This document shows, piece after piece, positions 8,129 through 64,000 of a stretch of DNA of 64,000 nt; the stretch's first letter is position 1, and each line of letters starts with the position of its first letter. This DNA comes from Mollicutes bacterium (GTDB lineage: Bacteria; Bacillota_I; Bacilli_A; RFN20; CAG-826): the NCBI GenBank assembly GCA_022780025.1, contig JALEXS010000018.1, positions 3,837 through 67,836 on the forward strand. Reading direction: 5' to 3'. The position numbers and the translations under genes are program-made. The notes below the pieces were generated by a model that was not told the DNA's origin, did not search any database, and saw nothing but the letters and a program-made list of their open reading frames with translations.

Positions 8129-9049
8129 TTAAATATCAAGAATTTCTTTAAATAAACTAAAGAACTTCTCTTTATTCAAAGATGTAGAAACATAAATTTC
8201 ACTAGATTTATTATCATTTATAAATGTATAACCATCTCTAGATAAATCTACATCTAATTTAACCTTTTTTAATGTAACAATATCTTCATCAATTAAACTT
8301 GCTACTGTTAAAGGATCATGCATTACAGGATTAGCAAATTGATAATGACTAAACCATTTCATCATCGCTTCATAAACAAGTTTAATTGCATTTGATTTAT
8401 TATTTTTTAAATCATTAACTTCTTCATCAGTTAAAGTAGTTAAACTAGTAGTATTTAAAGTAATACCAACAATTTTTTTAACACCACTATTAATAACAAT
8501 ACTAGCTGCTTCAGGATCACAAAATATATTCCATTCAACAAAATTAAAATCAAGACCTGCTCCCATAAATCTAATTTCTTTAATTAAAGGGATAATAGTA
8601 GGATCTTTTTTAATAGCTAAAGCAATATTAGTCATTGGTCCAATTGGAATTAAAGTTACTTCATTAGGATATTTATGAATAGATTCAATAATAAAATCAA
8701 CTGCATTAGTGCTTTCAATTTCATAATCTTTCATTTTCTCATCCCATTGAGGAAATAAATATTTACCATCTTCATCAACTACTTCTTTTTCTTTTATTTC
8801 TTTAGAAATTAAATGATTGATATCTTGTTTAATAGGATTATCTATACCTGGATAAACTTTTATATCATAACCTAAAGAAGCAATAAGACATTTAGCCATT
8901 TTTGCTCTTTTTATTGAATTTCTAAAAACAGTAGTAACACCTAAACAATCAAATTTATGACTTTCTAATAAAAGTAATAAAGCAAAAGAATCATCAATAT
9001 CATCACCAATATCAGTATCCAAAATTACTTTTTTTAATGTATTATTCAT
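8129..9049 (-). CDS. Inosine-uridine-preferring nucleoside hydrolase family protein
   Basis: DTDIGDDIDDSFAL (the DxDxxxDD Ca-binding motif) and WNIFCDPEAA. Start moved to the ATG at 9049, which is preceded by GGAGAGG 8 nt upstream. The track start at 9082 lies inside the upstream gene. Confidence 0.8.
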   Translation of the reverse strand: MNNTLKKVILDTDIGDDIDDSFALLLLLESHKFDCLGVTTVFRNSIKRAKMAKCLIASLGYDIKVYPGIDNPIKQDINHLISKEIKEKEVVDEDGKYLFPQWDEKMKDYEIESTNAVDFIIESIHKYPNEVTLIPIGPMTNIALAIKKDPTIIPLIKEIRFMGAGLDFNFVEWNIFCDPEAASIVINSGVKKIVGITLNTTSLTTLTDEEVNDLKNNKSNAIKLVYEAMMKWFSHYQFANPVMHDPLTVASLIDEDIVTLKKVKLDVDLSRDGYTFINDNKSSEIYVSTSLNKEKFFSLFKEILDI

Positions 9050-10781
9050 GTGTTGCACCTCTCCAATAAGAAAAATCTCCATTACTAGTTACAAAAGTAG
9101 GTTCTTTATATGATGGATTATTTTTAGGATATCCATATGTAACACCTAATATTTTTTTAGTATTTGTATAACTTTGTTTATAAAATGTAATAACTTTTTC
9201 TAAACCTTGTCGTTTAGCATAATTTATTGCATTTTGATATTCAGTTTCATAATCATCAGCTCTAATAATTTTAATTAAAGCTTCAGCCCATTTAGTTTTA
9301 ATCTTATTAGCAGTTGTTGTAACACTAAAATAAGATTTATCACCAGTATCATGTTTTAAGAAAGTAGGTTTAAAATTATATGAATAAGGAGTTAAAGGTC
9401 TTTTCATATTATCAACATAAATATCTTTATCTTTACGGCCGTTTAATGGTTTAAGTTTATTAATATAAGCTAAATTCATTACTAAAGTCATATTGTATAA
9501 ACCTAAGCTATTTATCCAAGCTTGATCTTCTTTATTACCATTAACACCACTAATATATCGATCAGTCCAGTTAATTGCAGTATGATCTTCGTTCCAAGTA
9601 TAAGATTCACCTTCAACACCAAAAGCAACTAATCTTTGTCCTTCTTCACTATATAAATATTCTAATAATTTAATTGCTTTATCAGGTCTTTTACAATTTC
9701 TAGTAATCATTGTTAATAAATAACCATTACCAGATATATCTTGTAAAATTGGAGCTTCATTATCTTTATTTTTTAATATTAAAGGAACATAAGTTTTATT
9801 ATCAGCATAAGCATTTAAAAAAGCAGCTTGATAATCTTGAGGAGTAACAGCAGTTACAAAACAATTTCCTCTAGAAATATTAGTTCTAATTTGAGCAGCT
9901 TTATCACTATAATTACTTGGTCTAATAATTTCTTCTTTATTGCATTCATTTAAAAAACCAAGCATTTCTTTATATCGATCAGTTAATCTAATATCTACAT
10001 AATTTCCATCTTTATCTTCATAAGCAGAACAGAAATATTGAGCTAACCAATCAATTGAATCATTTCCTTCACCAGTAAAAGCATCTAATTGGAAAGGAAT
10101 AGCTTCTTCATATTTATTTTTAATATATTTACAACCTTCAATAAATGATTTAGTAGTTGTCATATCGTAACCTGCTAATTTAGCTTCGTTATACCAATCT
10201 TCTCTAACCATTAAACATCCATTAGGTTCTAATTTTTCATCATCACTTATATATTTAGTAGAATAAGCAAAATTAGGTACACCATAAGTATTGCCATCAC
10301 CTTCTTTAAAATAATTCCACATATCTTCTTGAATCTTATCTTTAAAAGAAGGAGCCCATCTTTCAATTAAACCATCTAAAGAATATAAATAACCTTGATT
10401 AGCAAGTTGAGAACATTGACTATACCAAGATTGAACACTTATCATATCAGGTAATTTATTACCACTAATTAAAGTAGACAATTTTTGATTATCATCAGTA
10501 ACAGGAGAAACAAATTTAATATTAACACCCGTTTTTTCTTTAATTATTTCACTAACTCGATCATTTCCATATGTATTCCAAGAAAATGAAGAATCATTAA
10601 CATACCACTCTAAATCCCGACTTTCAATTTTTCCATTTTCATCTTTAAGATATTCCCAAGAATCTTTATCTCCTGGAGTATTAGGGAAATTAGGATAAGA
10701 GGCAGTTTTATTACCACCACAACTAGCTAAACTTAAAGTCATTAATGACATCAAAGATAATAAAGTAATTTTTTTATACAT
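9042..10781 (-). CDS. ABC transporter extracellular solute-binding lipoprotein (large LplA/LipO-like type)
   Basis: Lipobox LASCGG, 579 aa. It sits directly downstream of two sugar permeases. AGGAGG Shine-Dalgarno sequence. Confidence 0.8.
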   Translation of the reverse strand: MYKKITLLSLMSLMTLSLASCGGNKTASYPNFPNTPGDKDSWEYLKDENGKIESRDLEWYVNDSSFSWNTYGNDRVSEIIKEKTGVNIKFVSPVTDDNQKLSTLISGNKLPDMISVQSWYSQCSQLANQGYLYSLDGLIERWAPSFKDKIQEDMWNYFKEGDGNTYGVPNFAYSTKYISDDEKLEPNGCLMVREDWYNEAKLAGYDMTTTKSFIEGCKYIKNKYEEAIPFQLDAFTGEGNDSIDWLAQYFCSAYEDKDGNYVDIRLTDRYKEMLGFLNECNKEEIIRPSNYSDKAAQIRTNISRGNCFVTAVTPQDYQAAFLNAYADNKTYVPLILKNKDNEAPILQDISGNGYLLTMITRNCKRPDKAIKLLEYLYSEEGQRLVAFGVEGESYTWNEDHTAINWTDRYISGVNGNKEDQAWINSLGLYNMTLVMNLAYINKLKPLNGRKDKDIYVDNMKRPLTPYSYNFKPTFLKHDTGDKSYFSVTTTANKIKTKWAEALIKIIRADDYETEYQNAINYAKRQGLEKVITFYKQSYTNTKKILGVTYGYPKNNPSYKEPTFVTSNGDFSYWRGATHE

Positions 10782-49979: not shown

Positions 49980-51206
49980 TTAATTAAAAACAATTTCAAA
50001 TAATGATGTGTTATAAATTGGACTCCATTGAGAAACTTGCATAAACATTCTTTTTCCATCATTATCCATCATACATTCATTAATAAATCCTCCATAAAGT
50101 AATGGGAATTTATCAAAATTAATAACTTTAATTTTTTCTTTAAATTCTTCTAATAAAGAATCTGAAAGATAGAAATTAATACCATCTTCATCTAAATTAG
50201 ATATAATCCATTTATTTAAATATGGATTAAACATAATAGATCCTTCACTAGAATGATTATGATTTAATATATAGAAATAATCATCTTTATTAGTTACTAA
50301 TAAAGATTTAAATTCTTTATTTTTTGTTAATATTAAATATTTATCTTTATGTTCAATATCTATTTTTTTAACTTTTAATAAACAAGTATTTCCAAATCTT
50401 CCACCAGGATTAGCTAATAAATATATAAATTCTTTATCATCCTTATTTAAAAATGGGTAAATTTGACCAAATTGTTCACTATCACTACATTTAAAATTGA
50501 CATTTTCTACTTTTTTAAAATTCTTTAAATCATAATATTTTGCTTTTAATAATTGATTTTCTGTTACAAACCATTCTCCAGGTTTTCCCCAATATCTAAC
50601 AGACATATAAAATACATAAATATCATCATTAATTCTAATTCCACCAGTAGGAATCTTAGTAACTTCTTTATGATTGTTTATATCTAAATTTAATTCTAAA
50701 TTTTCATCATGTTGACCTTGGATAATTGGTTTAATAAGTTTATTATCATAAGAGATTATTTCTTTAAAATGAATATTATTAGAAAATTCTTTATTAATAG
50801 ATTTAGCAATAAAATTACTATTCCGCATTCCTTTATTACAGTCTTTTCCAGAAAAACTATCTCCATAAAGAAATAAACAATTATCTTTATTATCAATACA
50901 GATTCCTAAATCAGTAGAACCAATATGACTATTTTTAAATAATTCTTTATTAATAGACTCTTCTCCAGTAACAAATCCTAGATTATTAATATATTTAATT
51001 CCTTTATCTAAAGTAAAAGAATTCTTTAATCTATTATTAACATATAGAGTAACAATTTCATTAATTTCATCTACTTGATAATAAGTAACATAGTTATCTA
51101 AAAAAGCACTGTCATTAACTTCAATTTCCTTAATTTTATAGCCGTTTAGGTGGGTTTTTGCTTTTTCTAATGGCATATTGATAATATTTCTAACAGGTAT
51201 TTTCAT
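49980..51206 (-). CDS. DUF4185-like (GH183-like) beta-propeller glycosidase, cytoplasmic form
   Basis: GSTDLGI...LFLYGDSFSG....RNSNFIA, TKIPTGGI and the C-terminal QVSQWSPIYNTSLFEV. No signal peptide. Paralogue of 51208-52530. Confidence 0.55.
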   Translation of the reverse strand: MKIPVRNIINMPLEKAKTHLNGYKIKEIEVNDSAFLDNYVTYYQVDEINEIVTLYVNNRLKNSFTLDKGIKYINNLGFVTGEESINKELFKNSHIGSTDLGICIDNKDNCLFLYGDSFSGKDCNKGMRNSNFIAKSINKEFSNNIHFKEIISYDNKLIKPIIQGQHDENLELNLDINNHKEVTKIPTGGIRINDDIYVFYMSVRYWGKPGEWFVTENQLLKAKYYDLKNFKKVENVNFKCSDSEQFGQIYPFLNKDDKEFIYLLANPGGRFGNTCLLKVKKIDIEHKDKYLILTKNKEFKSLLVTNKDDYFYILNHNHSSEGSIMFNPYLNKWIISNLDEDGINFYLSDSLLEEFKEKIKVINFDKFPLLYGGFINECMMDNDGKRMFMQVSQWSPIYNTSLFEIVFN

Positions 51207-51207
51207 A

Positions 51208-52530
51208 CTATTTTAATACAACCTCCACAATAGAAGTATTATAAATTGGTGTCCATTGAGATAATTGAATATAGATTCTTTGACCATCAGTATCAGTGTA
51301 TTTATCATAAACAAATCCACCATATAGCCCAAAGAAATCACTACTAGAAACTACTTTATGAATATCATTATATGGTCCATATACGTTATCAGCTAAAGCA
51401 AAACAAATACTATTTCCTCTTAATGTAGAATAAATGTATTTATCTAAATATTTACTATACATAATAGATGGTTCACTAACTGAAGGACTTAATACATAAT
51501 ATGGATTTTCATTTAATAACTTAATTCCTTCACTACCTTTTTTCCATATATTATTACCAATTAAATATTCATATTCATCTTTATTTTCAAAACTATCTTT
51601 TTTAACTCTAAACATAATAGCTCCATCATTTCTTCCTCCCGGAATTGATGTAAAATAAACATAATCTTCATTTTTTGGATCAATAAATGGATAAATTTGT
51701 CCTGCATAAAATAATTCATCATCATTCCATCTAAGACCAGGAACATCAATAAATTCACTATAAGTATTATCTTTAGCTTTTACACATTGGTTATAAGTGA
51801 CATTCCATGATCCGCCTACTCCCCAATATCTAATTGACATATAGAAAATATATACTGTTCCATTGACAGTTATACCACCTGTTGGAATCTTAGTAACTTC
51901 AACATTTTTATTAAATTCATTACCTTGTTGATGAGCACCTTGACTAAAAGGTTTAATCATCCCATTTTCATAAGTTATAACATCATCAAACTTAAGTCCA
52001 TCTGTTAAATTATAATCACTACTAATAGCCATGAAATTAGAGTTCCAAAATCCTCCCATATTATCACCACTAAAAGTATCTCCATATAATAACATTGTCT
52101 TATTATTAGGGATTTCAAAAGGAATTCCTAAGTCAGTTCCTCTAGCACCACTATTAAGAAGTAATTCACTATTTTGCGATTCTGGTCCAGTAATATAATT
52201 AATTTTATTAATATAATTTACTAGATCATTATCCATACTTATAGCACTATCTTGCCTTTTAGAAATATTAATTTCAACTCTTTGACCTTTTTCAATCTTA
52301 TCACCTACTTTTAAATTATTTCCATAAGACAAAATTCTACCTTCAATGAGTTCCGAAGTAGGAACATGATTTTCTTTAAATAAGAAATCTGTTCCTACTT
52401 TAAGTTTCGCTTCTTTTAAAGTTAAACTATATAAATCTGGTAATGTAATATATTCTTTATTTTCATTACAAGAGAATATTGTCAAAAGAAGCGGTAAAAT
52501 ACATAACGTTTTTATATAATTTTTATTCAT
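51208..52530 (-). CDS. Lipoprotein: PASTA-like domain fused to a DUF4185-like (GH183-like) glycosidase
   Basis: Lipobox IFSC. PASTA-like ITLPDLYSLTLKEAKLKV...EGRILSY...KVGDKIEKGQRVEINIS. Then GTDLGIPF...MLLYGDTFSG...WNSNFMA ... QLSQWTPIYNTSIVEV. Confidence 0.55.
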   Translation of the reverse strand: MNKNYIKTLCILPLLLTIFSCNENKEYITLPDLYSLTLKEAKLKVGTDFLFKENHVPTSELIEGRILSYGNNLKVGDKIEKGQRVEINISKRQDSAISMDNDLVNYINKINYITGPESQNSELLLNSGARGTDLGIPFEIPNNKTMLLYGDTFSGDNMGGFWNSNFMAISSDYNLTDGLKFDDVITYENGMIKPFSQGAHQQGNEFNKNVEVTKIPTGGITVNGTVYIFYMSIRYWGVGGSWNVTYNQCVKAKDNTYSEFIDVPGLRWNDDELFYAGQIYPFIDPKNEDYVYFTSIPGGRNDGAIMFRVKKDSFENKDEYEYLIGNNIWKKGSEGIKLLNENPYYVLSPSVSEPSIMYSKYLDKYIYSTLRGNSICFALADNVYGPYNDIHKVVSSSDFFGLYGGFVYDKYTDTDGQRIYIQLSQWTPIYNTSIVEVVLK

Positions 52531-52540
52531 AATCTAGTTC

Positions 52541-54547
52541 CTATTTCTTTCTTTTTAAGAAGAAAATAATAGCTCCAACAATAATACCTACACCGGCAAC
52601 ACCACCGATAATTCCACCAGCAATAGCTCCAGTATTACTCTTCTTTTCTTCATTTTTCTTTAATACAGTAACAACAATAGAATCTTTTTTACCATTAGTA
52701 GTTTCAACACTTATTTCACAAACACCTTCACCAATAGCTTCAATTTTGCCATTATTTACTTTACAAACTGCTTCATTACTTGAAGTCCATTTGACATCTT
52801 TATTTGTTGCATCACTTGGAGTAATTGTATAAGTTAAATCCTTAGTTTCTCCAACAAAAAGTTCTAGATCTTCACTATTTATTTCGATTTTGGTTGCTTC
52901 AGTTGAGAAAGGAGTTTCACTTAAAAATCTAATATTTACATTATCAACATATAAAGTATCACCAACATTATGAGGTGTGAAAAGCCATCTAACGCTATTC
53001 CATTGAATTTTATCTTGCATGACTTGGAAATCTAAAGTAACTCTAGTATAACCATTTGATAATACTTCTTTCTTAAAATTATAATGAGCACTTTCAGCAC
53101 CACTAGTAGTTACATAACTATCATCATAATTAATCTTAGATAAATCTAATTTATAATAAGAAACATTAGCTCCACCAACAAAGCAAGAATTAATTTCTGT
53201 ATAAGTTATAGGATCATCACTAATTGTCAATTTATAATCATATTGGAATCTAACTAAATCACCAATTGTTAAATCATCTGGTGTCATTAAAAACATTGAA
53301 GAATAGTTTTTAGCATCACTTGCATCATTTTTGCCAATAGAAGCAACTTTATTATCACCATCTTTAACAATACGTCCAGGATTATCTAAACTAACACTTC
53401 CCCAAGCACCTTCTAATTGCTTTTCACTAAATTTAGTACCTTCATCAAACTTTTCAAAATCACCATTAACTACTAAATTCTTATCTTCATAATAAGTTTT
53501 TGTAGGATCAAAAGCATTTTCATAAGTTGGTTTTATGCTAAAATAAGAAATAGAAAGTTCACTAGAGCCCCTATATTCTAACTGGACTTTCTTTGCATCA
53601 CTTATTTTATTAAATGTACCTATATATGAATTTTTAGTTGTAGAAACACCATCTTTAATGATTTCAATTTCTTTAACTGAAGTTTTTTCGCTGTTTAATA
53701 TATTGAGTTTTAAATTAGCGTCACTTGCTAATTCTCCATCAAACTTAATTTCTGTAGTATATAAATTTTCATTTAATGAATCAATTTCTAATCCATAAAT
53801 ACCATCATTAGTTAATTTAACATTACCATTACCTAAAGTAACATTTTGACCATATAATTTATTTTCATTTGGAGTCATTGTTAATGTTGAAGTAGCATAA
53901 TCTAAAAATCCTTCAAAATCTCCACCTTTAAAGATATTTTCAGTGGTTCCAGTTTTAGTCATCTTAAAATTGTCAGCATAAATAGTTGCACTATTAATAT
54001 TGCACCAGAAATGCATTGAATCATAAACTTTATCTTCAAATTTTCTAGTATATTCAATATGTTTCCAATTATTAGCTAAATCAGTAGTTTTAACATCTTT
54101 ATTTTGGCTAGAATCAAAGATATTAACTTCAGGTAATCTATTTCCATCAGTTATACACCAAAAAGCAAATCCAATATTATCGGTACTACCATCTACTTTA
54201 TAATCAAATTCAATCTTATATTCTCCACCTTTTTCAATGTTTAATAATTTATAGAAAGATGAGAATCCATTACCCATAAATTTGATAACAGTATTACTAG
54301 AATTATTTTCTTCTTTAGTAACATAAGCTTTACCATCAAATGTACCCATTCCACTAATAACACTATCACCACTAGGAGCAGCACTAGGAACAACATATTC
54401 CCCAGCACCAATTTTAAAATCACCATTATAAACTATATTTTCGCCATAAATATAGTTTGCTTTTGCTTCATTACTTACATTAGCTAAAGGTAAACTGACG
54501 CCCTGAGCTAATCCAAATAATGCTAAACTTAATAAATATTTTTTCAT
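52541..54547 (-). CDS. Surface protein with three CBM4/9/22-like modules, a Big_2 Ig-like domain and a C-terminal TM anchor
   Basis: Signal peptide. Three module starts of the form N(I/L)(V/F)xxGDF(K/E). Big_2-like TKDLTYTITPSDATNKDVKWTSSNEAV. C-terminal GGIIGGVAGVGIIVGAIIFFLKRKK. Confidence 0.55.
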   Translation of the reverse strand: MKKYLLSLALFGLAQGVSLPLANVSNEAKANYIYGENIVYNGDFKIGAGEYVVPSAAPSGDSVISGMGTFDGKAYVTKEENNSSNTVIKFMGNGFSSFYKLLNIEKGGEYKIEFDYKVDGSTDNIGFAFWCITDGNRLPEVNIFDSSQNKDVKTTDLANNWKHIEYTRKFEDKVYDSMHFWCNINSATIYADNFKMTKTGTTENIFKGGDFEGFLDYATSTLTMTPNENKLYGQNVTLGNGNVKLTNDGIYGLEIDSLNENLYTTEIKFDGELASDANLKLNILNSEKTSVKEIEIIKDGVSTTKNSYIGTFNKISDAKKVQLEYRGSSELSISYFSIKPTYENAFDPTKTYYEDKNLVVNGDFEKFDEGTKFSEKQLEGAWGSVSLDNPGRIVKDGDNKVASIGKNDASDAKNYSSMFLMTPDDLTIGDLVRFQYDYKLTISDDPITYTEINSCFVGGANVSYYKLDLSKINYDDSYVTTSGAESAHYNFKKEVLSNGYTRVTLDFQVMQDKIQWNSVRWLFTPHNVGDTLYVDNVNIRFLSETPFSTEATKIEINSEDLELFVGETKDLTYTITPSDATNKDVKWTSSNEAVCKVNNGKIEAIGEGVCEISVETTNGKKDSIVVTVLKKNEEKKSNTGAIAGGIIGGVAGVGIIVGAIIFFLKRKK

Positions 54548-54571
54548 TATTATCCTCCCTAAAATAATTTA

Positions 54572-55621
54572 TTAATCTTCTAAAGGTAATCTTTCTTCTT
54601 TAGAAGGCATTTCCTTTTTAATAAGATATGGCTTAACTGTATAAAAATATGCAGTTGAAGACCAATCATCACATCTATTATTGTTATGACCATGTTCAAT
54701 AGTAACTTTTATTGATTTCTTAAAAGTAATAGGATCCATTATGTGATATCGATAATAAGTAATTTTCCCTTTCCAATTATCATCACCACCTAAAATAATC
54801 CCATGATATGGCGCATTATATTCTTGATTAGGACACCAAGCCATATTGACATAATCTTCTGTTCCTGTTCCATGAATTGAAGGATTATTTTCTCCATCAA
54901 TAAAGATAAAATCATCCCCTTCACCAGGCCAATCCCATTCTTTTGAATCACTTAAATTATGAATATTTAAATTACATCCAACATAATGTCCTTCACCGAT
55001 AATATCTAATAAAACATAATTATCTTTACCACTTACATTTTGTCCGCCAAATAAAAATTCTTTACGGTCTTTAAATAAATGATAATCTTTGCCATTAGTT
55101 GGATTATTTCTATTCCAAATAGCACCAAAATAACATATTTCATCTTTAAAATTGATTTCTTCATAATCAATATAGAAATAAAGCATTAAAGTTAAATCAC
55201 ATTCATTTACTATTTCAATTTTACAAGATTTTTTAAAAGGCATTGGCCACCAAGAATTTAACCCTCGACCATCTTGAGGAGACATTTGTAAAGGTTCACT
55301 AACAAAATTCTTACTTATTCCATGACCCATTCCAAAAAAATCACCTAATGGAACTAATACACTTGGATAATCATTATCATCATAAAAAACTTTAATATAA
55401 ACTTTTCTAAAAGCATTTTTCTCGATAATATCCCCAAAATTCATTTGGGTCATCCAAATATGAGTAATTAAACAAGATCCACAAACATCAAATATAACTT
55501 TACTTTCATTAGGTTTTATATAAATACGATCATCATTACCACCAGTTTTATCATAAGATGATACTCTTTTTCTAATTCCTTCTTTTTTAAAATAAATATT
55601 AGATAAATTATTACCAAACAT
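54572..55621 (-). CDS. DUF2961 / GH172-like glycoside hydrolase, cytoplasmic
   Basis: SSYDKTGGNDD, CLITHIWMT, PLGDFFGMG, WWPMPF and GTGTEDY motifs, as I recall for DUF2961. No signal peptide. Confidence 0.7.
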   Translation of the reverse strand: MFGNNLSNIYFKKEGIRKRVSSYDKTGGNDDRIYIKPNESKVIFDVCGSCLITHIWMTQMNFGDIIEKNAFRKVYIKVFYDDNDYPSVLVPLGDFFGMGHGISKNFVSEPLQMSPQDGRGLNSWWPMPFKKSCKIEIVNECDLTLMLYFYIDYEEINFKDEICYFGAIWNRNNPTNGKDYHLFKDRKEFLFGGQNVSGKDNYVLLDIIGEGHYVGCNLNIHNLSDSKEWDWPGEGDDFIFIDGENNPSIHGTGTEDYVNMAWCPNQEYNAPYHGIILGGDDNWKGKITYYRYHIMDPITFKKSIKVTIEHGHNNNRCDDWSSTAYFYTVKPYLIKKEMPSKEERLPLED

Positions 55622-55623
55622 AA

Positions 55624-56511
55624 TTATTTAACACCAGTTAAACTGATGCCCTCCTTAATAAATCTTTGAACAATTATAAATACAACAATAGCTGGAATAA
55701 GTGATATAAATGAAGCAGCTAAAACAGCACCATATCCAACAGTATTAATATCTTGGAATAATGAATTAATTAAAGTCATTATTTGAGTATATTGAGAATG
55801 AGCCTTATCAATAGTTAAAGTAGGCCATAAATAAGAATTATAATAACCAATAAATGTACCTGCTCCCATAATAACCATTGGAGTTAATGAATTAGGAACA
55901 AATATTTTAAAGAATATTTCAATTGAATTACATCCATCAACTCGAGCAGCTTCATCATAATCTTTAGGAAATCCTAAATAGAATTGCTTAAAAAAGAATA
56001 TATTATAAGCATTAGCTAGACCAGGAACTATTAAAACCAAAATAGTATTAAGCATTCCTAAACTAGAAACAACACTAATTGAAGTTAATAAAATTGTAAT
56101 ACCTGGAATAAACATCGTTGATATAACTATTACCCATATAATTTTCTTAAAAGGAAAATTAAGTCTAGCAAAAGCATAACCTGCAATTGAATTAATGAAT
56201 AAAGATAAAACCATTGATATAGTTGCAACAAGTAAAGTCATTCCAAACGATTGGAAGAAATTAACACCAATTGTTGTATATTGTAAATAAAATAATCTAG
56301 CAAAATTATCAGTAGTCCATTGATGAGGAAATATATGAAAATCCAAACTAAATATTTCTTTTTTATCTTTAAACATTGATAAAATAGTAAAGAATAAAGG
56401 TAAAAAGATATTAATTAAAACTATGATTACTATTAAATAAAGTAATATTTCAATAACTCTACTTTTAGTAGTTTTAGTTTTTCTTTTATTTCTAGAATCT
56501 AACTTATCCAT
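55624..56511 (-). CDS. Carbohydrate ABC transporter permease
   Basis: EAA loop EAARVDGCNSIEIFFKIFVP. 6 TM. Confidence 0.85.
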   Translation of the reverse strand: MDKLDSRNKRKTKTTKSRVIEILLYLIVIIVLINIFLPLFFTILSMFKDKKEIFSLDFHIFPHQWTTDNFARLFYLQYTTIGVNFFQSFGMTLLVATISMVLSLFINSIAGYAFARLNFPFKKIIWVIVISTMFIPGITILLTSISVVSSLGMLNTILVLIVPGLANAYNIFFFKQFYLGFPKDYDEAARVDGCNSIEIFFKIFVPNSLTPMVIMGAGTFIGYYNSYLWPTLTIDKAHSQYTQIMTLINSLFQDINTVGYGAVLAASFISLIPAIVVFIIVQRFIKEGISLTGVK

Positions 56512-56513
56512 AA

Positions 56514-57449
56514 TTATTCACCCTTTTTCTTTCTATTTGATAAAGAAAAAACAATCGCATTAAGTGCTCCAATAAATATCATTATAACTATTGAAGAAGC
56601 TATTATTTCACTTTGAGAAACATTACCATTAGCTCTAGCATGAATTAAATATAATACAGGTGTCATTGTAGAATTTAATGGTTGACCATTTGTCATAAGC
56701 ATAGGTATCTCAAACATCTGTAAATTTGCAGTAACTAAAGTAACAATAATTAATACAAAATAATTCTTTAAACAAGGTAAAACTATATACCACATCTGCT
56801 TCCAAAAATTAGCACCATCTATTTCACTAGCTTCATAATAATCTTTAGGAATATTAATTAAACCTGAATAAAATATTAAGGTAGTATAACCAGATCCAAT
56901 CCAAATAGTAGGAACAATTATTGATATATAAGCCCAGAATTTAGAATAAGTAAACGCAATAGGTTCAATATCCATCCATCCTAAAATACCATTAATTACT
57001 CCACCATTATAATAAGTTAATAAAGTAAAAATACATCCTACTACAATCCCAGAAAATAAATAAGGTAAATAAATTATTGTTCTAGCAAATATACCAAATC
57101 TATTCTTAATTCTTACTAAAATATTAGCAAATAAGAAAGCACCTATTACTTGCAAAATTACAATAAATAGTGTCATTATGCAGACATTTAGTAAAGATTT
57201 AACGAAATTTTGATTTTTAAAAATCTTAATATAATTACTAAAACCAGCAAAAATAGCTTCATTAGGTCCAGATTCAAAATAGAAAAATGATCTATATATT
57301 GCCATTATTAAAGGAACAATTACGAAAATAGTTAATAAAATAACAGCTGGAGCAATAAGTAAATATCCAGATACTTTTTCTTCTTTAACAATATTTTTTG
57401 GTAATATTGAAAACTTCTTCATAAACCTATAAACGTGGATTCTTTCCAC
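56514..57449 (-). CDS. Carbohydrate ABC transporter permease
   Basis: EAA loop EASEIDGANFWKQMWYIVLP. The track start at 57449 is a GTG overlapping the SBP gene. The ATG at 57422 is an alternative start. Confidence 0.8.
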   Translation of the reverse strand: MERIHVYRFMKKFSILPKNIVKEEKVSGYLLIAPAVILLTIFVIVPLIMAIYRSFFYFESGPNEAIFAGFSNYIKIFKNQNFVKSLLNVCIMTLFIVILQVIGAFLFANILVRIKNRFGIFARTIIYLPYLFSGIVVGCIFTLLTYYNGGVINGILGWMDIEPIAFTYSKFWAYISIIVPTIWIGSGYTTLIFYSGLINIPKDYYEASEIDGANFWKQMWYIVLPCLKNYFVLIIVTLVTANLQMFEIPMLMTNGQPLNSTMTPVLYLIHARANGNVSQSEIIASSIVIMIFIGALNAIVFSLSNRKKKGE

Positions 57450-58791
57450 TTAAAGAATTATCATTAATAATCTTAGTGACAGCTTTATCACATTTATCAA
57501 TAGAACTATCAATATCTTTTCCCATTGCTGCTTCTTCTAATAACCCTTCAACAGCAACACTAATATTCCAATCATATATTGGTTCTAAAATAGCTTTATT
57601 AGATACACCACTAATAACATCAATCCAACTAGAAGGAACATCATTTTGTTCATTCTTTTTCTTATCTAATATAGTTTGTATTGACTTTCTAGGAGATGCT
57701 TTTGAGTAAAATGCTCTAGTAAAATAATCAACTGTTTGTTCTTCATTTTCCGCAGTTAAAAATTTAATAACTTCTATAGCTTTATCTACATTTTTACATT
57801 CACTAGATATAACATAAGCCCATCCACCATTAGTAGCAGTAACTTTATCTTGATTACCATCAAATGTTGGCATAATAGCAAATCCAATATCATCTTTAAT
57901 ATCTTTATATTGATTTAAAACAGTCGATATTGACCAACTACCACAAGTAGTCATAACTGCTTTTCCATCGCATACATCAAAAACAGATTCAGTATATTCG
58001 CCACTTGATAAAGGAACATATCCATTAGAATATAAATCTTTCCATAAATTAGCTAAATCTTTATAACCTTTTTCTTTAATTCTAGAAGTAGACCAATCTT
58101 CAGTGATAGCAAGTCCTCCTGTAGCACTATGTTGCATACCCCAAGTACCCCAAGCACAAGCAACCCCAGTTGGTACACCAAAAGGATAAATATTTTTCTT
58201 ATTATCTTTTCTTAAATTAGTTTTAATATTTTTACATAAATCTAAGAAATCACTCCATTTAGTAGGAACATTATCTTTATTACCATATTGCTTTAATAAT
58301 TTCTTATTATAAGCAACTATAGTTGATGGCTCCATAACAATAGGGAATCCATAATATTTATTATTATATGTAATAGCTTCTTTAGCAGTATCTTTTAAAT
58401 CATCCCAAACTTTATTATCTAAATAACTTGATAAATCAATAGCTCTACCTGCTTGAACTTCTTTATATAGATTACCATAAGATACCATATAAATATCAGG
58501 TACATTCTTAGCTTCATAACTTGATCTAATTAAATCATCAAAATCATTCTTATTAATATAAGTTTGATCAAGTTGAATACCATCATCTTTTATTTTATTG
58601 AATGCTTTTCTTTGAGAAATATTAATTTGATTTTCCCATTCCTCAAAATCCATCATCCACATCTTAATATGTGTTGCATTTTCTTCTACAAATTCTTTTT
58701 CATCATCAATTATTATATCTGATGGTGGTTTACATGAAAATAAACAAGAAATTGCACAAAAACTTAATAAGTATAGCTTTCTTCTTTTCAT
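57427..58791 (-). CDS. ABC transporter sugar-binding lipoprotein (family 1)
   Basis: Lipobox LFSC, 454 aa. It is the first gene downstream of the AraC regulator. Confidence 0.8.
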   Translation of the reverse strand: MKRRKLYLLSFCAISCLFSCKPPSDIIIDDEKEFVEENATHIKMWMMDFEEWENQINISQRKAFNKIKDDGIQLDQTYINKNDFDDLIRSSYEAKNVPDIYMVSYGNLYKEVQAGRAIDLSSYLDNKVWDDLKDTAKEAITYNNKYYGFPIVMEPSTIVAYNKKLLKQYGNKDNVPTKWSDFLDLCKNIKTNLRKDNKKNIYPFGVPTGVACAWGTWGMQHSATGGLAITEDWSTSRIKEKGYKDLANLWKDLYSNGYVPLSSGEYTESVFDVCDGKAVMTTCGSWSISTVLNQYKDIKDDIGFAIMPTFDGNQDKVTATNGGWAYVISSECKNVDKAIEVIKFLTAENEEQTVDYFTRAFYSKASPRKSIQTILDKKKNEQNDVPSSWIDVISGVSNKAILEPIYDWNISVAVEGLLEEAAMGKDIDSSIDKCDKAVTKIINDNSLSGKNPRL

Positions 58792-58895
58792 ATTTGCTCC
58801 TATTTAATTTAACTTTATTATGACTAATAAGCCTTAATAATAATAGAGCAAAAAACTTTTAAATGATAACAAAAATTTGGAAATCGCTATTGTCT

Positions 58896-59765
58896 TTATT
58901 TTTTTGATTTATTTTTTTCGTTTTTATATTGTGTCGGATATCGTCCATCTAATTTATAAAACCAACGTGAAAAAGTTTGAGGTTCATTAAAATTAAGTAA
59001 CATTGATATTTCTTTAATAGATTTAAAAGAATTTCTAATCAAGTTTTTAGCATAACCTAATCTTAAATTATCATAATATTTTTTTGGAGTAGTATGAAAT
59101 GTCTTATTAAATAATTCATTTAATGCCCAACTAGATAAATTACTTTTGAGTTCAAAATCTTTAAGAGTTAAATTATTTTGTAAATTCTCAGTCATATAGC
59201 GAGTAATCATACTAACCATATCAAAATTTTCACTATCTTCTTTATAACCAATAGCATCGCTAATATACATTGATAATAATAATTTTAATGTTCCTTCCAT
59301 ATGTAATTTCTTTAAAGGATCATCAAAAGTATACTCATTTATTAAATGTAACATTAAACTTCTTACTAAAGATGGATTAGTTGAATGAATAACAAGTGGT
59401 AAATTTAACCCTAATTCCTTTAAATAATTAGGTCTAAAATAAGTTAATTCTTTATCACTCATATATTCTTTTTCTTTCATTGATACAGGAATAATAGGTG
59501 ATAATTCATCTTCATTAAAATCAAAATGAATATGAGGTTGACAACAATTCTCCTTATACCATCTAATAATATGATGTTTATTAGGAGGAATTAATATTAA
59601 ATCTCCTTCTTTTACTATATAAGTATCATCATCAAATTCTATCTTCATCATTCCTTTATCAATAAATATCAGTTCGAAATCAAAAATAGATCTATTAATA
59701 AAATAATCAGGAAGCCATGTATGATACATTGCAAGTCTTATATAAGGTTTAAAATTGAGTTCCAT
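58896..59765 (-). CDS. AraC family transcriptional regulator
   Basis: Cupin-like N-terminus (GDLILIPPNKHH). C-terminal AraC HTH IKEISMLLNFNEPQTFSRWF. Confidence 0.85.
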   Translation of the reverse strand: MELNFKPYIRLAMYHTWLPDYFINRSIFDFELIFIDKGMMKIEFDDDTYIVKEGDLILIPPNKHHIIRWYKENCCQPHIHFDFNEDELSPIIPVSMKEKEYMSDKELTYFRPNYLKELGLNLPLVIHSTNPSLVRSLMLHLINEYTFDDPLKKLHMEGTLKLLLSMYISDAIGYKEDSENFDMVSMITRYMTENLQNNLTLKDFELKSNLSSWALNELFNKTFHTTPKKYYDNLRLGYAKNLIRNSFKSIKEISMLLNFNEPQTFSRWFYKLDGRYPTQYKNEKNKSKK

Positions 59766-60015
59766 CTTATTTATTATGATACAACATTATTAAAAAGAAA
59801 TAACTAAAATTTGTATGCTCATTTTAATTGATAATAAATCTATTTATCTTATATATAAATAATTTTAAATAATATTAAAAGTTCTATATAGCATTAAATA
59901 ATTACTATCAAATATTTATTTGTTAATCATTAAATATTATTTTTAACTATTATTTTTATTAAAAATACAATAAGTATGCAAAACTTAACTTATTTTTTTA
60001 ATTTTTTTACATAAA

Positions 60016-60033
60016 AGTACCCATTCGGGTACT
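60016..60033 (+). promoter_or_regulatory. GC-rich palindrome AGTACCC-N4-GGGTACT upstream of lipoprotein gene 1
   Basis: 7-bp arms with a 4-nt spacer, ending 21 nt upstream of a TAATAT -10-like box. The same element sits upstream of the paralogue at 62192-62209. Confidence 0.5.
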
Positions 60034-60084
60034 ATGGCCTTATTTTAAATATGTTAATATTTACGCACAAAGGAGAACAAAAAA

Positions 60085-62079
60085 ATGAAAAGAAAAAGAA
60101 ATAACCTTGCTTTTGCTTTTGTTTTTATGTTAACACTTCCTGCAACATTAGTCTTTTCAAGTTGTGGAAAGCATAAACATAGTTTTAGTAAAGATTGGAC
60201 TACGACTGAAACAGAGCATTGGCACTCTTGTACAGGTAAAGATTGTGAAGAAAAGAAAGATTTAGGAAATCATGACTTTACTTGGTCTACTAAAACTGAA
60301 GCTGGTGTTCATATTGACAAAGTTGAAGCTGGTAAATGTAAAGTATGTAATTATGAAACTATTAGAACTATTAAAGGAACTGCTACTCATAGTTATGATA
60401 CTACTAAATGGGCATATGATGAAACTAGCCACTGGCACGGTTCTAATTGTAATGATTTAGCTCCAGCTCATGATGTAATGAAAATTGATGAAGCTAATCA
60501 TAGTGGCGATTGGACTACTAAAGTTGAACCTAATTATGGTGTTGATAAAGTAATCGAAAGAGATTGTGAAGTTTGTGGATATCATGAAGAAAAAACTTTA
60601 GAAGGAACTAGACTTGCTCCTAAAAATAGAGAGCTTACAGCTAATATTCCTGAATTAACTTATAACGGTGAGCCTCAACCAGTTGATCCTTATCTTACTA
60701 TGACTAATAACGAAGGTGGATTGACTGTTGAATATAGAAAAAAAGGTGATAATTTATTTACTAATAATGTCCCTACTAATGCTGGAACATATGAATATGT
60801 TGCTAAATTAAACGCAACTGATGAATGGTTAGAAGCTAGAACTTTTGGCGAATATACTATTAATAAGAAAACTATTTATATAAGTGATGGTCCTTATACT
60901 ATTAATTATGTTGAAAATCCTGCTAATAATGTTTTAGAACTTACAACCGGTACAATCGGTACAAATAATGTATCATTCTGTGTTGATGCTAAATATAATG
61001 TTGTTGGTAGAGCTAGTATACCTACAAGTGAAATCTTTATTCGCTTTGTTGGAACTATTAATTATAACGCAAATTATCAAGTAGCAATCGAAGGAAAAGA
61101 TAGTTTTGAATTAGTTGTTTTAGATACTTCTCCTTTCTATTGTGGTATTCAAGATGTATTATCAATTGGAGGTACTCCAATTATTACTACAAAGATTGCT
61201 AAAGGAACTGTTAAAGTTAATGATAAACTCTTTGTTAATGATATCCATAAAGAAATTACTGTTACAGCTATTGAAAAAAATAGAGTTAGTTTAACTTCTG
61301 CTACTGTTGGTGATGAAGTTGGCTTTAAAATTTCTGGAGTTACTAAAGATGAATTATCTCGTGGTTATGTTATTTCTACATTAAATACCGTTAAAAATTA
61401 TGATGTATTTAAAGCTAAAATCACTTTATTAACTAAAGCGGATGGTGGTAGACATACTCCAATAGCTAACGGATATAACCCAACATTAACTTTCCCAGAT
61501 ACTTTTGGACAATTTAGTGGTAAATTTACTTTCCCTGAAGGCCTTGAGATGATTATGCCTGGTACAACTGAGGAAAATATTACTATTACATTAGATATGC
61601 CAAAGCCTCTTATTCCTAATGCTAAATTTGATATTTATGAAGGTGGTACAACTATTGGAAGAGGTGAAATTACTACTTTACACGAACATAATGATTTATA
61701 TTTAAAAACTGGTGTATGTGAAGCATGTAATTTAAATAGACAAACTAAAGCTACATTTACAGATCTTAAATTCACTTCTACTAATAACATATATTATGCT
61801 AATGAATATAAATATTATTTAGTAAGTATGATTGCATCTCATATGGCAAATTATACTTATTACTACGATTTTGAAATAAGTGATACTACTAATTTTGAGT
61901 TTAATGTATTTGCAACTTCTGGTGGTGAATTAACATTAATTGATGGAAAATCATATAATGCGACAAAACCATTTACGGTAGTTATGAGAGTTAAAGCTAA
62001 ACAAGCTTCTACTACTGGTGATTGTACTGCAATAGTTACTAGAAGATCACTAAAAGTAATAACACCACCTAGATTGTAA
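60085..62079 (+). CDS. Lipoprotein with Cys/His repeats, an MBG-like domain and an EF-Tu domain II+III-like module
   Basis: AAAGGAGAA Shine-Dalgarno sequence. Signal peptide plus lipobox FSSC. Residues ~350-532 align by eye with EF-Tu domains II and III (ADGGRHTP, PEGLEMIMPG, YEGGTTIGRG). Confidence 0.75.
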   Translation: MKRKRNNLAFAFVFMLTLPATLVFSSCGKHKHSFSKDWTTTETEHWHSCTGKDCEEKKDLGNHDFTWSTKTEAGVHIDKVEAGKCKVCNYETIRTIKGTATHSYDTTKWAYDETSHWHGSNCNDLAPAHDVMKIDEANHSGDWTTKVEPNYGVDKVIERDCEVCGYHEEKTLEGTRLAPKNRELTANIPELTYNGEPQPVDPYLTMTNNEGGLTVEYRKKGDNLFTNNVPTNAGTYEYVAKLNATDEWLEARTFGEYTINKKTIYISDGPYTINYVENPANNVLELTTGTIGTNNVSFCVDAKYNVVGRASIPTSEIFIRFVGTINYNANYQVAIEGKDSFELVVLDTSPFYCGIQDVLSIGGTPIITTKIAKGTVKVNDKLFVNDIHKEITVTAIEKNRVSLTSATVGDEVGFKISGVTKDELSRGYVISTLNTVKNYDVFKAKITLLTKADGGRHTPIANGYNPTLTFPDTFGQFSGKFTFPEGLEMIMPGTTEENITITLDMPKPLIPNAKFDIYEGGTTIGRGEITTLHEHNDLYLKTGVCEACNLNRQTKATFTDLKFTSTNNIYYANEYKYYLVSMIASHMANYTYYYDFEISDTTNFEFNVFATSGGELTLIDGKSYNATKPFTVVMRVKAKQASTTGDCTAIVTRRSLKVITPPRL

Positions 62080-62147: not shown

Positions 62148-62191
62148 ATTTATAGACAATTTTTTATTATTTATAATAAAAATTAAATATT

Positions 62192-62209
62192 AGTACCCTA
62201 CTGGGTACT
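62192..62209 (+). promoter_or_regulatory. Second copy of the AGTACCC-N4-GGGTACT palindrome
   Basis: Same arms as 60016-60033, followed by a conserved AAATATG(C/T)TAATATT..CACAAAGGAGAA leader. Confidence 0.5.
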
Positions 62210-62299
62210 AATAGATATTAATAAATATGCTAATATTAATCCACAAAGGAGAATAAAAATAAAAAAAGAAATAGTATTTTTGGTTTATTTTCTATTTTT

Positions 62300-64000
62300 A
62301 TGTTAGCTATTCCTATAACATTAGTAACTTCAAGTTGTAAGAAAAAGCATCAACATAATTATGAAGAAAATCGGACTATCACTGAAACGGAACATTATCA
62401 CAAATGTAGTGATACTAATTGTGATGATAAAAAAGATTTAGGGGAACATACCTATTCTAATTGGACTACTAAAACTGAAGCTGGAGTTGATACTAATAAA
62501 GTAGAAAAGAGAATTTGTACAGTATGTTCTAAAGAAGAAACTAGGATAATTGAAGATAGTGCTACTCATACTTGGGCTTATAAGTTTGATAATGAATCTC
62601 ATTGGGAAGAAACTACTTGTAATCATGATCCTCAATTAATTAGAAACGTCACTCCACATAGTTGGTATTACACTTCTAGCGGTGAAAATGGACATAAAAA
62701 ATATTCAACTTGCCCTACTTCTATTCATGAAGAAATAGTTATTGGACCTATTGCTCATACTTATGATGATGAATCTGATCCTACATGTAATGATTGTGGT
62801 TTTACAAGAACTATTACTAATTTAGGTTCATTTAAAGAAATTAGTGATAAAACATATAGTGGATATAATCAAGGTATTAAAGATTATGAATATGAAATTG
62901 ATGAAGCAATTCAATCTTATTCAGAAATTCAATATAAATCTATAGATGATCCTGAAGAATCTTATTCTACTACTGCTCCAATTGATGCTGGTACATATAA
63001 TGTAAGAATTTATTGTAATGGTAGCTTGACACATGGAAAAGGTGTAATTGCTACTTCTACTTATAAAATATTACCTTTTGAAGTAGATGTTAGTACTTAT
63101 TATGAAATCAAATATGATGAAGCAACATATAACGATTCTAATATTAATTTCTTACATTTAGAAACTATAGATATGTATGATGATGATTTCTATGGTAAGA
63201 CATTTAATTTAATAGCTAATGATCCTAAATATAAAGCTATAGGTAGATATGATATACCTAGAAGTGATTTATATTTAGATACTAATGGAGAAGATAATAA
63301 TTTTACAATATCTAATAGTATTACTAGTATTAAGGTATTAAATTATGATGATAGTGAACCTCAATTATTAATTCATAATGGTGCTAAGCAAACTGCTTAT
63401 ATGTATAGAGATATCTTAACTATTTATCATGTAGATTTAACAAGTGGAACTATAAGAGTTGGTGATTATTTATATTGTGATACTCTTGATGCACCTTTAT
63501 TAATTACTAGACTTTATAAAAATATGGATGTTCAAGCAATAACTAAAGGTGAAACTAAGTTTTCAGTTCAATTTAAGAATACTGTAGTAACAGAAGATAA
63601 TTTTGTTGGCAAATTAGAAATGAAAACTTTAAGAAAGGTCAGTTATGAAGTAGTAAAATATGCTGGTAATCCTTCTTTTGATTCTAAACCATTCACTTGT
63701 GAAGTAGGTGTAATTAGATTTATGGAAGTAAGTATTGAGTTAGAAGCTAATACTAAATATCGTTTCCAAGTTCAAACTATAGGAAGTTATGCCTATAGTC
63801 ATGTTGGAACTGATACACCAATTAAAGTGTATAACGTTACTGGTAAAACTTTATTAACAATGGATTCAGAGATTCACAATAAATTTTATATAGAAAATAA
63901 TACTAATGAAAAAGTAACTGTTACATTAGTTGTTGGTGCTACTAAAGTAGGTACAGATCCTAAACCAGCAGTTCATAACTTCGTATTATATGTTATTAAC
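62300..64000 (+). CDS. Paralogous Cys/His-repeat lipoprotein (partial, runs off the right edge; 5' end anomalous)
   Basis: The frame is open from 62240 to the window end and is absent from the ORF track. The translation ...KKRNSIFGLFSIFMLAIPITLVTSSCKKKHQH... parallels gene 1. The first in-frame ATG is at 62300. The position equivalent to the gene-1 ATG is not a start codon. Confidence 0.6.
   Translation, partial: MLAIPITLVTSSCKKKHQHNYEENRTITETEHYHKCSDTNCDDKKDLGEHTYSNWTTKTEAGVDTNKVEKRICTVCSKEETRIIEDSATHTWAYKFDNESHWEETTCNHDPQLIRNVTPHSWYYTSSGENGHKKYSTCPTSIHEEIVIGPIAHTYDDESDPTCNDCGFTRTITNLGSFKEISDKTYSGYNQGIKDYEYEIDEAIQSYSEIQYKSIDDPEESYSTTAPIDAGTYNVRIYCNGSLTHGKGVIATSTYKILPFEVDVSTYYEIKYDEATYNDSNINFLHLETIDMYDDDFYGKTFNLIANDPKYKAIGRYDIPRSDLYLDTNGEDNNFTISNSITSIKVLNYDDSEPQLLIHNGAKQTAYMYRDILTIYHVDLTSGTIRVGDYLYCDTLDAPLLITRLYKNMDVQAITKGETKFSVQFKNTVVTEDNFVGKLEMKTLRKVSYEVVKYAGNPSFDSKPFTCEVGVIRFMEVSIELEANTKYRFQVQTIGSYAYSHVGTDTPIKVYNVTGKTLLTMDSEIHNKFYIENNTNEKVTVTLVVGATKVGTDPKPAVHNFVLYVIN

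Follow-up and report, generated by a model that had tools for sequence, protein, structure and literature searches.

To our knowledge, the two β-barrel domains of the elongation factor EF-Tu, domain 2 (D2) and domain 3 (D3), and D3 above all, are all but confined to translational GTPases and their close relatives. It has long been disputed whether EF-Tu at the bacterial surface is functional there or is debris of lysed cells, because EF-Tu has no export signal. The reported ligands of full-length surface EF-Tu, considered a moonlighting protein, are mucins, fibronectin, plasminogen and factor H (PMC6822514, PMC5593925). Here we describe a gene in a 64-kb stretch of DNA (the window) from an uncultured Mollicutes bacterium (GenBank assembly GCA_022780025.1, contig JALEXS010000018.1) whose product, a predicted lipoprotein of 664 residues, holds D2 and D3 of EF-Tu without the GTPase (G) domain. 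Its complete coding sequence lies at 60085..62079 on the + strand of the window, which has a G+C content of about 25% and long open reading frames under translation table 11. The reading we favour, with a probability of about 0.55, is that D2-D3 was exapted into the exposed, variable head of a surface lipoprotein that would act as an adhesin or in ligand capture. A preliminary description made from the sequence of the window had regarded the architecture as undescribed; we likewise found no description of it in the literature, and none of the ~70 homologous clusters reported below carries a name or annotation in any source.

That description placed EF-Tu D2 and D3, without the GTPase domain, inside an exported lipoprotein at 61132-61680 (residues 350-532), and profile, phmmer and fold matches, all of them strong, bear this out. 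The four sequence blocks it quoted are all present in the translation of 60085-62079, the E. coli strings set beside them are exactly those of tufA b3339 (MG1655), and the limits of the module can be refined to those of D2 and D3 in Table 1. Both Pfam models score above their cut-offs, GTP_EFTU_D2 (PF03144) at residues 366-430 with 37.0 bits (cut-off 30.3) and GTP_EFTU_D3 (PF03143) at residues 436-532 with 44.8 bits (cut-off 27). The NCBIfam EF-Tu models match only over model positions ~209-394 of 394-396 (E=2.8e-35), and the full-length EF-Tu models TIGR00485 and PRK00049 give 116-122 bits against cut-offs of 449-522, below the score of an equivalog or subfamily member. When all PDB sequences were searched with phmmer, residues 349-532 aligned with EF-Tu 201-392 (E=5.4e-32, ~35-40% identity), and every strong match was an EF-Tu. 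An AlphaFold2 model built from a 46-sequence family alignment (mean predicted local distance difference test score, pLDDT, of 87) superposes on EF-Tu across both barrels. The 50 best Foldseek matches in the PDB are all EF-Tu, with a root-mean-square deviation of 2.0-2.8 Å (~2.1 Å) over ~189 columns, and the mutual arrangement of D2 and D3 is EF-Tu-like in what is a predicted model, not a solved structure.

The absence of G-domain motifs had also been claimed. A regular-expression scan of the reading frame finds no P-loop/G1 (GxxxxGKT), no DxPGH and no genuine NKxD, the sole [NT]KxD match being TKAD inside D3, and a Pfam scan of the 664-residue protein gives no PF00009 match. The 'mid' domain that precedes D2 (residues 266-345) has no Pfam match either, and it is not a decayed G domain, since it is predicted to be all-beta. 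Residues ~346-533 are thus confirmed, by sequence comparison and by the predicted model, as a true EF-Tu D2-D3 module lacking the G domain, an observation far beyond chance.

In EF-Tu, the aminoacyl-tRNA pocket and the T-stem contacts are made up by E215, D216, F218, R223, T228, E259, F261, N273, R318 and H319, as known from ternary and antibiotic complexes, while domain 1 supplies His66 and the 5′-end contacts that complete the tRNA site. The fate of these residues was followed in an alignment that set 34 non-redundant family modules against 20 EF-Tus and the E. coli TufA, whose numbering is used here for EF-Tu. In the aminoacyl/A76 pocket of the window protein, E215 is replaced by Q356, F218 by Leu, F261 by Asn and N273 by Glu, and R223 is deleted, all at tRNA-contact positions that are 100% conserved in the EF-Tu set. 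Across the family, the E215 position is Gln in 44% of modules and Lys in 18%. The fold residues G234, G271, G289, P352/G353, F210 and F374 are retained in 88-100% of the family. With the pocket residues changed and domain 1 absent, binding of tRNA or of GE2270A-type antibiotics is unlikely to be the selected function. Accordingly, of the 'tRNA/ligand-binding barrels' of the preliminary description the EF-Tu barrels stand, by homology, and a retained tRNA function should not be read into them, as E215, F261, N273 and R223 are replaced or deleted.

A second role put forward earlier was that of a decoy. In solved EF-Tu complexes that are among the fold matches (5jbq, 2c77, 1d8t), D2 is the site of GE2270A or thiomuracin, and exported D2-D3 without a G domain recurs in unrelated architectures (Table 1), as might be expected of a decoy or sensor for EF-Tu-targeting molecules such as GE2270A-type thiopeptides, toxins or phage proteins. 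However, the remodelled D2 pocket disfavours a decoy for EF-Tu-directed antibiotics: besides the replacements given above, EF-Tu G257 is Ala in the window protein, and G275 is retained in 38% of the family. In EF-Tu itself, G257S and G275A confer resistance. Near relatives already differ at pocket positions, searches for defence and phage families gave no PADLOC or PHROG matches, and a viral fold library returned only giant-virus translation GTPases and noise. We consider a decoy or sensor very improbable. A retained grip on the tRNA acceptor and T-arm or on extracellular RNA, for instance in nucleotide scavenging by a reduced-genome bacterium, is if anything harder still to credit. The window protein does keep D216, T228, E259, R262 and R288 together with the DGGRHTP T-stem loop, in which R456 and H457 (in GGRHTP) correspond to R318 and H319; yet these two residues are found in only 56% and 50% of the 34 family members, H457 is Asn in an orthologue of 88% identity, and the pocket changes and the missing domain 1 count against RNA binding as well.

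The protein belongs to a family. An identical protein is found on five independent contigs, including one of the NCBI metagenome-assembled genome (MAG) GCA_028723005.1 and those of two Logan runs, and ~70 homologous clusters (at 90% identity) share the architecture, with 24-93% identity and lengths of ~600-1118 residues. The preliminary description had suggested a survey of related genomes for the same architecture, and orthologues or paralogues occur at 25 loci in a scan of one genome per GTDB species. The genomes concerned are recorded as uncultured Bacilli or 'uncultured Mollicutes', as 'Coprobacillus sp. CAG:826' and as a rumen 'Erysipelotrichaceae' MAG; a few of the bins are obviously mislabelled. 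Some genomes carry two or more paralogues, at times in tandem. Among 46 diverse family members, Pfam detects D2 in 42 and D3 in 39.

It had been suggested that the reading frame might be chimeric, a tuf fragment having been joined to a lipoprotein gene during assembly; a decaying pseudogene would be a related artefact. Metagenome protein sets do contain genuine tuf chimeras (P0166, P0250, P0281-P0286). They are, however, at least 60-70% identical to real EF-Tu and keep pieces of the G domain, whereas the window module is 33-44% identical, has an intact frame, is encoded identically on the five contigs and conserved at the 25 genomic loci, and is under purifying selection at larger distances. 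The artefact is refuted, and what little probability it keeps is negligible: the protein is a real member of a gene family. P0166, P0250 and P0281-P0286 were themselves considered as exported examples without a G domain and rejected as mis-assembled tuf fragments. A search seeded with P0232, another exported protein (Table 1), was swamped by true EF-Tus, its few G-less matches being the fragments P0281-P0286.

The module is one part of a chain of predicted extracellular domains (Table 1). As had been noticed, the N-terminus has the form of a lipoprotein signal, MKRKRNN / LAFAFVFMLTLPATLVF / SSC27, with a charged n-region, a hydrophobic h-region and a lipobox-type Cys27 that is kept across the family. 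Of 80 homologues whose N-terminus is intact, 75 satisfy the lipobox pattern, and in four of the remaining five a lipobox-like Cys is visible by eye. The two units that follow, of ~70 residues each, have the residues H32, H45, H47, H63, C85 and C88 and H102, H116, C122, C161 and C164 invariant in alignment A1, and weak zinc-ribbon Pfam matches appear in some family members; these units are probably zinc-ribbon-like modules that would bind zinc. Three units of the pattern HxF..W..HWH..C..H..CxxC are fused to an FGE-sulfatase (PF03781) domain in another protein, P0403. Since it also occurs there, the His/Cys unit would be a general, apparently un-named extracellular repeat that carries differing heads. 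The next domain resembles MBG domains: MBG_3 reaches 11 bits (E=0.49) in the window protein, below the Pfam cut-off of 25, and the MBG models PF18887 and PF17883 match at E<0.01 in 7 of 46 homologues (MBG_3 in six, MBG in one).

Beyond D3, the knuckle at residues 533-548 has H533, H535, C545 and C548 (H-x-H ... C-x2-C) invariant in the nine-sequence alignment A3. The C-terminal domain has no Pfam match; modelled alone with AlphaFold2 it reaches a pLDDT of 89, and its Foldseek matches, all weak (E 7e-4 to 3e-3, TMq 0.42-0.60, 8-16% identity), are PliG, the claudin-binding domain of C. perfringens enterotoxin and the collagen-binding (PPC) domains of ColG and ColH. The layout reads as a conserved membrane-proximal stalk, made of the His/Cys units, the MBG-like domain and the beta domain, that bears a variable distal head of D2, D3 and the C-terminal sandwich. 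Family CAG-826 of the order RFN20 is predicted to be peptidoglycan-deficient, and the order to lack sortases (PMC10868615); lipoproteins would therefore be the expected main route of surface-protein display in this lineage.

Table 1. Features of the lipoprotein gene and its surroundings (window coordinates), followed by unrelated exported proteins with EF-Tu-type modules
Feature	Coordinates	Strand	Remarks
Signal peptide with lipobox	60085..60165	+	residues 1-27; predicted lipid-modified Cys27
Two His/Cys-rich beta units	60166..60609	+	residues 28-97 and 98-175; each HxH/HWH ... C ... H ... CxxC
MBG-like beta domain	60610..60879	+	residues 176-265; most conserved part of the protein
All-beta 'mid' domain	60880..61119	+	residues 266-345, before D2; strands only in the AlphaFold2 model, pLDDT ~90
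EF-Tu domain 2 beta-barrel	61120..61380	+	residues 346-432; from Pfam, NCBIfam, phmmer, Foldseek and alignment
EF-Tu domain 3 beta-barrel	61381..61683	+	residues 433-533; includes DGGRHTP, EMIMPG and YEGGTTIGRG
HEH...CEAC knuckle and C-terminal beta-sandwich	61684..62076	+	residues 534-664; most variable domain
Perfect palindrome/hairpin AGTACCC-ATTC-GGGTACT	60016..60033	.	52-69 nt upstream of the start codon
Second palindrome, GTACCC...GGGTAC	62188..62213	.	upstream of the tandem paralogue
Tandem paralogue	62300..64000 (open frame from 62240)	+	runs past the window end; 567 residues in L003
Intergenic region	59766..60084	+	between the lipoprotein gene and the divergent AraC-type regulator gene; holds the 5′ region
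AraC-family regulator	58896..59765	-	divergent; first gene of the sugar ABC transporter/GH172/DUF4185 locus
Sugar-utilisation locus	49980-59765	-	AraC, solute-binding protein, two permeases, GH172 (DUF2961), 668-residue Big_2 surface protein, two DUF4185, then SIS and PfkB-kinase
P0137			lipobox, PASTA, two D2-D3 modules, L7/L12 C-terminal domains; high-GC
P0151			signal peptide, L7/L12 C-terminal domains, two D2-D3 modules
P0232	L035 2975-4414		lipobox, three L7/L12 C-terminal domains, D2-D3; interior of an 11-kb contig
P0139, P0219			N-terminal membrane anchor, then D2-D3; low-GC
P0273			N-terminal membrane anchor, then EF-Tu-like body with degenerate G region; low-GC

As to origin, the preliminary description had envisaged either a recent duplication of the genome's own tuf gene or an old recruitment. 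In an unbootstrapped neighbour-joining tree, whose EF-Tu set is dominated by sequences of the candidate phyla radiation (CPR), the family modules group together as a single long-branched clade, apart from all EF-Tus. Compared with 131 full-length EF-Tus, the window module shows 33-44% identity to each, and the median identity between family and EF-Tu is 31%, while EF-Tus are at least 63% identical to one another. A family hidden Markov model scores 132 EF-Tus at 156-195 bits, with Firmicutes-like ones barely ahead; in pairwise identity to the window module AT-rich CPR EF-Tus lead (41-44%), and an EF-Tu from a 'Bacilli' MAG reaches 37%. Among these 131-132 EF-Tus, to which the host's own tuf does not belong, there is no sign of a recent copying of host tuf. 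The tree fits a single capture of D2-D3 that would have been followed by strong divergence.

The domains of the lipoprotein differ in their rates of change. In a codon analysis of seven orthologues the ratio of nonsynonymous to synonymous substitution rates (dN/dS) is 0.03-0.6 at moderate and large distances, and given this overall purifying selection the gene is a working one. D2 leads in dN/dS in most pairs, the lowest values usually being those of the MBG-like domain (0.05-0.27) and the 'mid' domain. In the closest pair, the window and locus L006, dN/dS is 1.29 in D2 (25 nonsynonymous and 6 synonymous substitutions), 1.02 in the C-terminal domain and 0.10 in the MBG-like domain, and D2 with the C-terminal domain differs from the rest of the protein (Fisher p=0.002). 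Entropy across 42 close relatives is highest in the C-terminal domain and lowest in the MBG-like domain. The hot spots of variation are the C-terminal domain and, within D2, loop 359-366, which is hypervariable, carries indels and is the counterpart of EF-Tu 218-226, the loop that closes over the aminoacyl group. The fastest change therefore lies in D2 and the C-terminal domain of a protein that is under purifying selection overall.

We propose that the ancestor of the lipoprotein family captured D2-D3 once, from a bacterial tuf gene, and that the captured module lost the G domain and most aminoacyl-tRNA-contacting residues and kept its fold and D2/D3 packing. With the C-terminal domain it would now bind an external macromolecule, as an adhesin or ligand-capture head, and this head would double as an antigenic surface under diversifying pressure, with no role in translation. 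The adhesion or ligand-capture role named in the preliminary description fits these data, and a role as a head is supported by the re-use of the stalk with other heads, in a paralogue without D3 and in the FGE-sulfatase protein P0403. The main rival holds that D2-D3 is merely a pair of sturdy barrels that lengthen or rigidify the stalk, the C-terminal sandwich alone doing the binding. Conservation in the family does sit on fold-determining Gly, Pro and hydrophobic residues with the functional residues of EF-Tu degenerate, stalk units and heads are shuffled among paralogues, and D3 is dispensable in the neighbouring paralogue. However, D2 evolves unlike the stalk, its high dN/dS and its indel-prone loop being typical of an exposed interaction or antigenic surface, and D2-D3 is kept together in 39-42 of 46 diverse members across the whole range of family identity. 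We consider a mere spacer less likely than a binding head.

Several points nevertheless weigh against an exapted binding head. The residues shared by at least 85% of members (G374, T375, D380, V393, A406, T407, G409, V412, G427, F470, P484, P492, G493 and F515) have for the most part a structural role, and conservation of that kind is equally expected from a pure scaffold role. No family-specific conserved polar surface patch could be defined in the 34-module alignment. The dN/dS values above 1 come from few substitutions (25 nonsynonymous to 6 synonymous) in one species pair, with recombination not excluded, and the fold resemblance of the modelled C-terminal domain is weak. The single capture is an inference, because the neighbour-joining tree is unbootstrapped and its EF-Tu set CPR-dominated. 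Lipidation and surface exposure are predicted from a sequence pattern, and the host, an uncultured member of the gut Bacilli, is probably wall-less as judged from related genomes and the literature and not from its own genome.

The genes around the family members raise another possible role for the head, namely the capture of a polysaccharide for delivery to the ABC importer and glycoside hydrolases (GH) encoded alongside. The lipoprotein gene is divergent from the AraC, solute-binding protein, permease, GH172 and DUF4185 genes, and a solute-binding protein gene with a regulator and/or GH genes adjoins family members in all five contexts analysed (the window, L001, L032, L033 and L034). Enzymes of the GH172 and DUF4185 types have been associated with D-arabinan or arabinofuranose-type substrates. 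Surface EF-Tu of lactobacilli has been reported to bind mucins (PMC6822514). However, the sugar loci next to family members are of different types (GH32, GH3/GH31 or GH172/DUF4185), and since the window is packed with sugar loci such adjacency is expected by chance and is weak evidence. No carbohydrate-binding module family was found by Pfam in the window protein and 46 homologues, and the C-terminal fold matches are protein-binding and not carbohydrate-binding modules. Glycan capture is accordingly rather improbable. In three of four contexts outside the window, a surface protein with Listeria-Bacteroides repeats (Flg_new) lies directly upstream.

The region between the two divergent genes also coincides with a strand switch at ~59800-60100. 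To its left all but one of the open reading frames of at least 150 residues are on the - strand and the GC skew is negative; to the right of 60 kb, where just 4 kb of the window remain, genes are on the + strand and the skew is positive. No DnaA-box cluster marks a replication origin near 60 kb, and an origin-like switch there is not supported.

A Shine-Dalgarno sequence, AAAGGAGAA, sits 8 nt before the ATG of the lipoprotein gene. The upstream 325 bp are identical in the window and L003-L005 and ~95% identical in the sister-species locus L006. In these five sequences no phase-variation switch, either a tract-length change or an invertible promoter, was seen upstream, the T7/T7/A7 tracts being unchanged even in L006; phase variation by tract length was accordingly rejected, as no homopolymer changes its length among them. 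The palindrome GTACCC-N4-GGGTAC (GTACCCnnnnGGGTAC) occurs in just two copies in the 64-kb window (0 expected), one before each of the tandem paralogues. The pair is found likewise in L003, L004 and L006 and is absent from more distant loci. The palindrome may be a shared operator or a 5′-untranslated-region hairpin.

The tandem paralogue downstream has the same signal, His/Cys units, MBG-like stalk and a D2-derived barrel, and D3 is absent. Compared with the family by hhalign it matches with Prob 100 and E=4.5e-60, reaching family residue ~410 inside the first half of D2. A direct hhalign comparison with EF-Tu is not significant (Prob 1%), so the D2 ancestry of this barrel is supported via the family profile only. 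The paralogue was duplicated along with its 5′ region, which comprises the hairpin, TAAATATGnTAATATT and AAAGGAGAA. Its orthologue in L006 lies at 8144-9916; the window lacks a single G ahead of an A7 run, so that the start ATG of that orthologue reads AAT there. Translation from the first ATG in the window therefore gives a signal peptide (MLAIPITLVTSSC) that is cut short and without a charged n-region. Possible readings are initiation at a non-AUG codon, impaired export and a pseudogene in the making.

In sister clades a strong AAGGAGG lies ~45 nt upstream of the ATG of the family gene, with a hairpin in between. In alignment A9 of these leaders (L001 7941-8012, L009, L011, L012, L015, L016, L018, L019 and L020) the hairpin has a conserved 9-bp stem, three pairs of which show compensatory changes, and a 15-nt loop; when folded, it would put the Shine-Dalgarno sequence and the AUG ~13 nt apart. 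The leaders resemble the hairpin-bridged ribosome-binding site of phage T4 gene 38, whereas the window gene has a conventional Shine-Dalgarno sequence instead. A 9-codon upstream reading frame in the same leaders was dropped as a candidate because L009 and L011 lack its start codon; the hairpin itself is conserved.

Modules of this kind are not confined to the family. An exhaustive phmmer search with the module against 1.84 billion representative proteins gave 2488 matches at E<=1e-3, among which the family and ordinary EF-Tus are joined by unrelated exported proteins that lack a G domain (last rows of Table 1). The modules of these proteins are nearer to EF-Tu (34-57% median identity), with E215 and D216 mostly retained. 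These sequences suggest that translation-factor domains may have been recruited repeatedly to the cell exterior. The wider reading, in which exported D2-D3 lacking the G domain would be a recurrent extracellular module that several phyla recruited independently, is a doubtful generalisation for now. If it were true, the barrels, with the L7/L12 C-terminal domain in some proteins, might share an extracellular activity, for example towards a common class of host or microbial ligands, or alternatively might trap or sense molecules aimed at the translation apparatus; it would also give a genetic basis to the disputed 'moonlighting' of surface EF-Tu. P0157, P0164 and P0187, one of which has 2376 residues, show an EF-Tu-like N-terminus (MAKEKF...) with degenerate G1, G3 and G4, followed by D2-D3, and may be pseudo-GTPase paralogues of EF-Tu.

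The family thus joins D2-D3, minus the GTPase, to a lipoprotein signal, and selection has kept the combination across many uncultured species of gut Bacilli. A core ribosome-factor fold has been permanently re-used in it, with a predicted place outside the cell, and the family lends itself, as a clean and genetically defined case, to the question of what EF-Tu-type barrels can do extracellularly. It is also a major unannotated surface-protein family of a poorly known lineage of the human and animal gut, and a pointer to more exported proteins with translation-factor domains in other phyla.

Among the described proteins it can be compared with, Pbp11 of Pyrococcus (NF041207) likewise has a D2-type barrel without a G domain, but the match is at E=0.017, with 15 bits against a cut-off of 100, and Pbp11 is a cytoplasmic archaeal single-domain tRNA-binding protein, unlike an exported lipoprotein. 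The C-terminal 131 residues are predicted to form a beta-sandwich similar to those of PPC/collagen-binding domains, C-CPE and PliG, a likeness of fold that is too weak for any transfer of ligand. With EF-Tu itself (TufA; TIGR00485) the lipoprotein shares both barrels, their packing and the motifs xIxDVx, GTVxVGD, GGRHTP, MPG and EGGxTxGxG; it differs in having no GTPase domain, in its signal peptide and lipobox, and in the place of the module between unrelated extracellular domains. The moonlighting EF-Tu of Mycoplasma pneumoniae and Lactobacillus johnsonii is alike in being an EF-Tu-type polypeptide on a low-GC or wall-less surface, the display of the lipoprotein being predicted. Moonlighting EF-Tu, however, is the full-length tuf product without an export signal, and judged by its sequence the lipoprotein is not such a protein, as it comes from a separate, diverged gene with its own signal peptide, consists in its EF-Tu part of D2-D3 without domain 1, and is 33-44% identical to EF-Tu.

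In build the protein resembles the modular surface proteins of Gram-positive bacteria and mollicutes (MBG proteins, Listeria-Bacteroides-repeat proteins and the variable lipoproteins of mycoplasmas), with which it has in common a predicted N-terminal lipid anchor, a beta-rich stalk built of repeats, a distal region that varies, paralogues in tandem and neighbours with Flg_new repeats. It differs from them in its translation-factor-derived head and in an MBG-like domain that falls below the Pfam threshold, and from the phase-variable Vlp/Vsa lipoproteins in that the five upstream sequences hold no tract-length or invertible-promoter switch. The protein reads as one that works like these modular surface proteins and not like EF-Tu. 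Modular surface lipoproteins are already known; what is new is a surface lipoprotein with a translation-factor-derived head.

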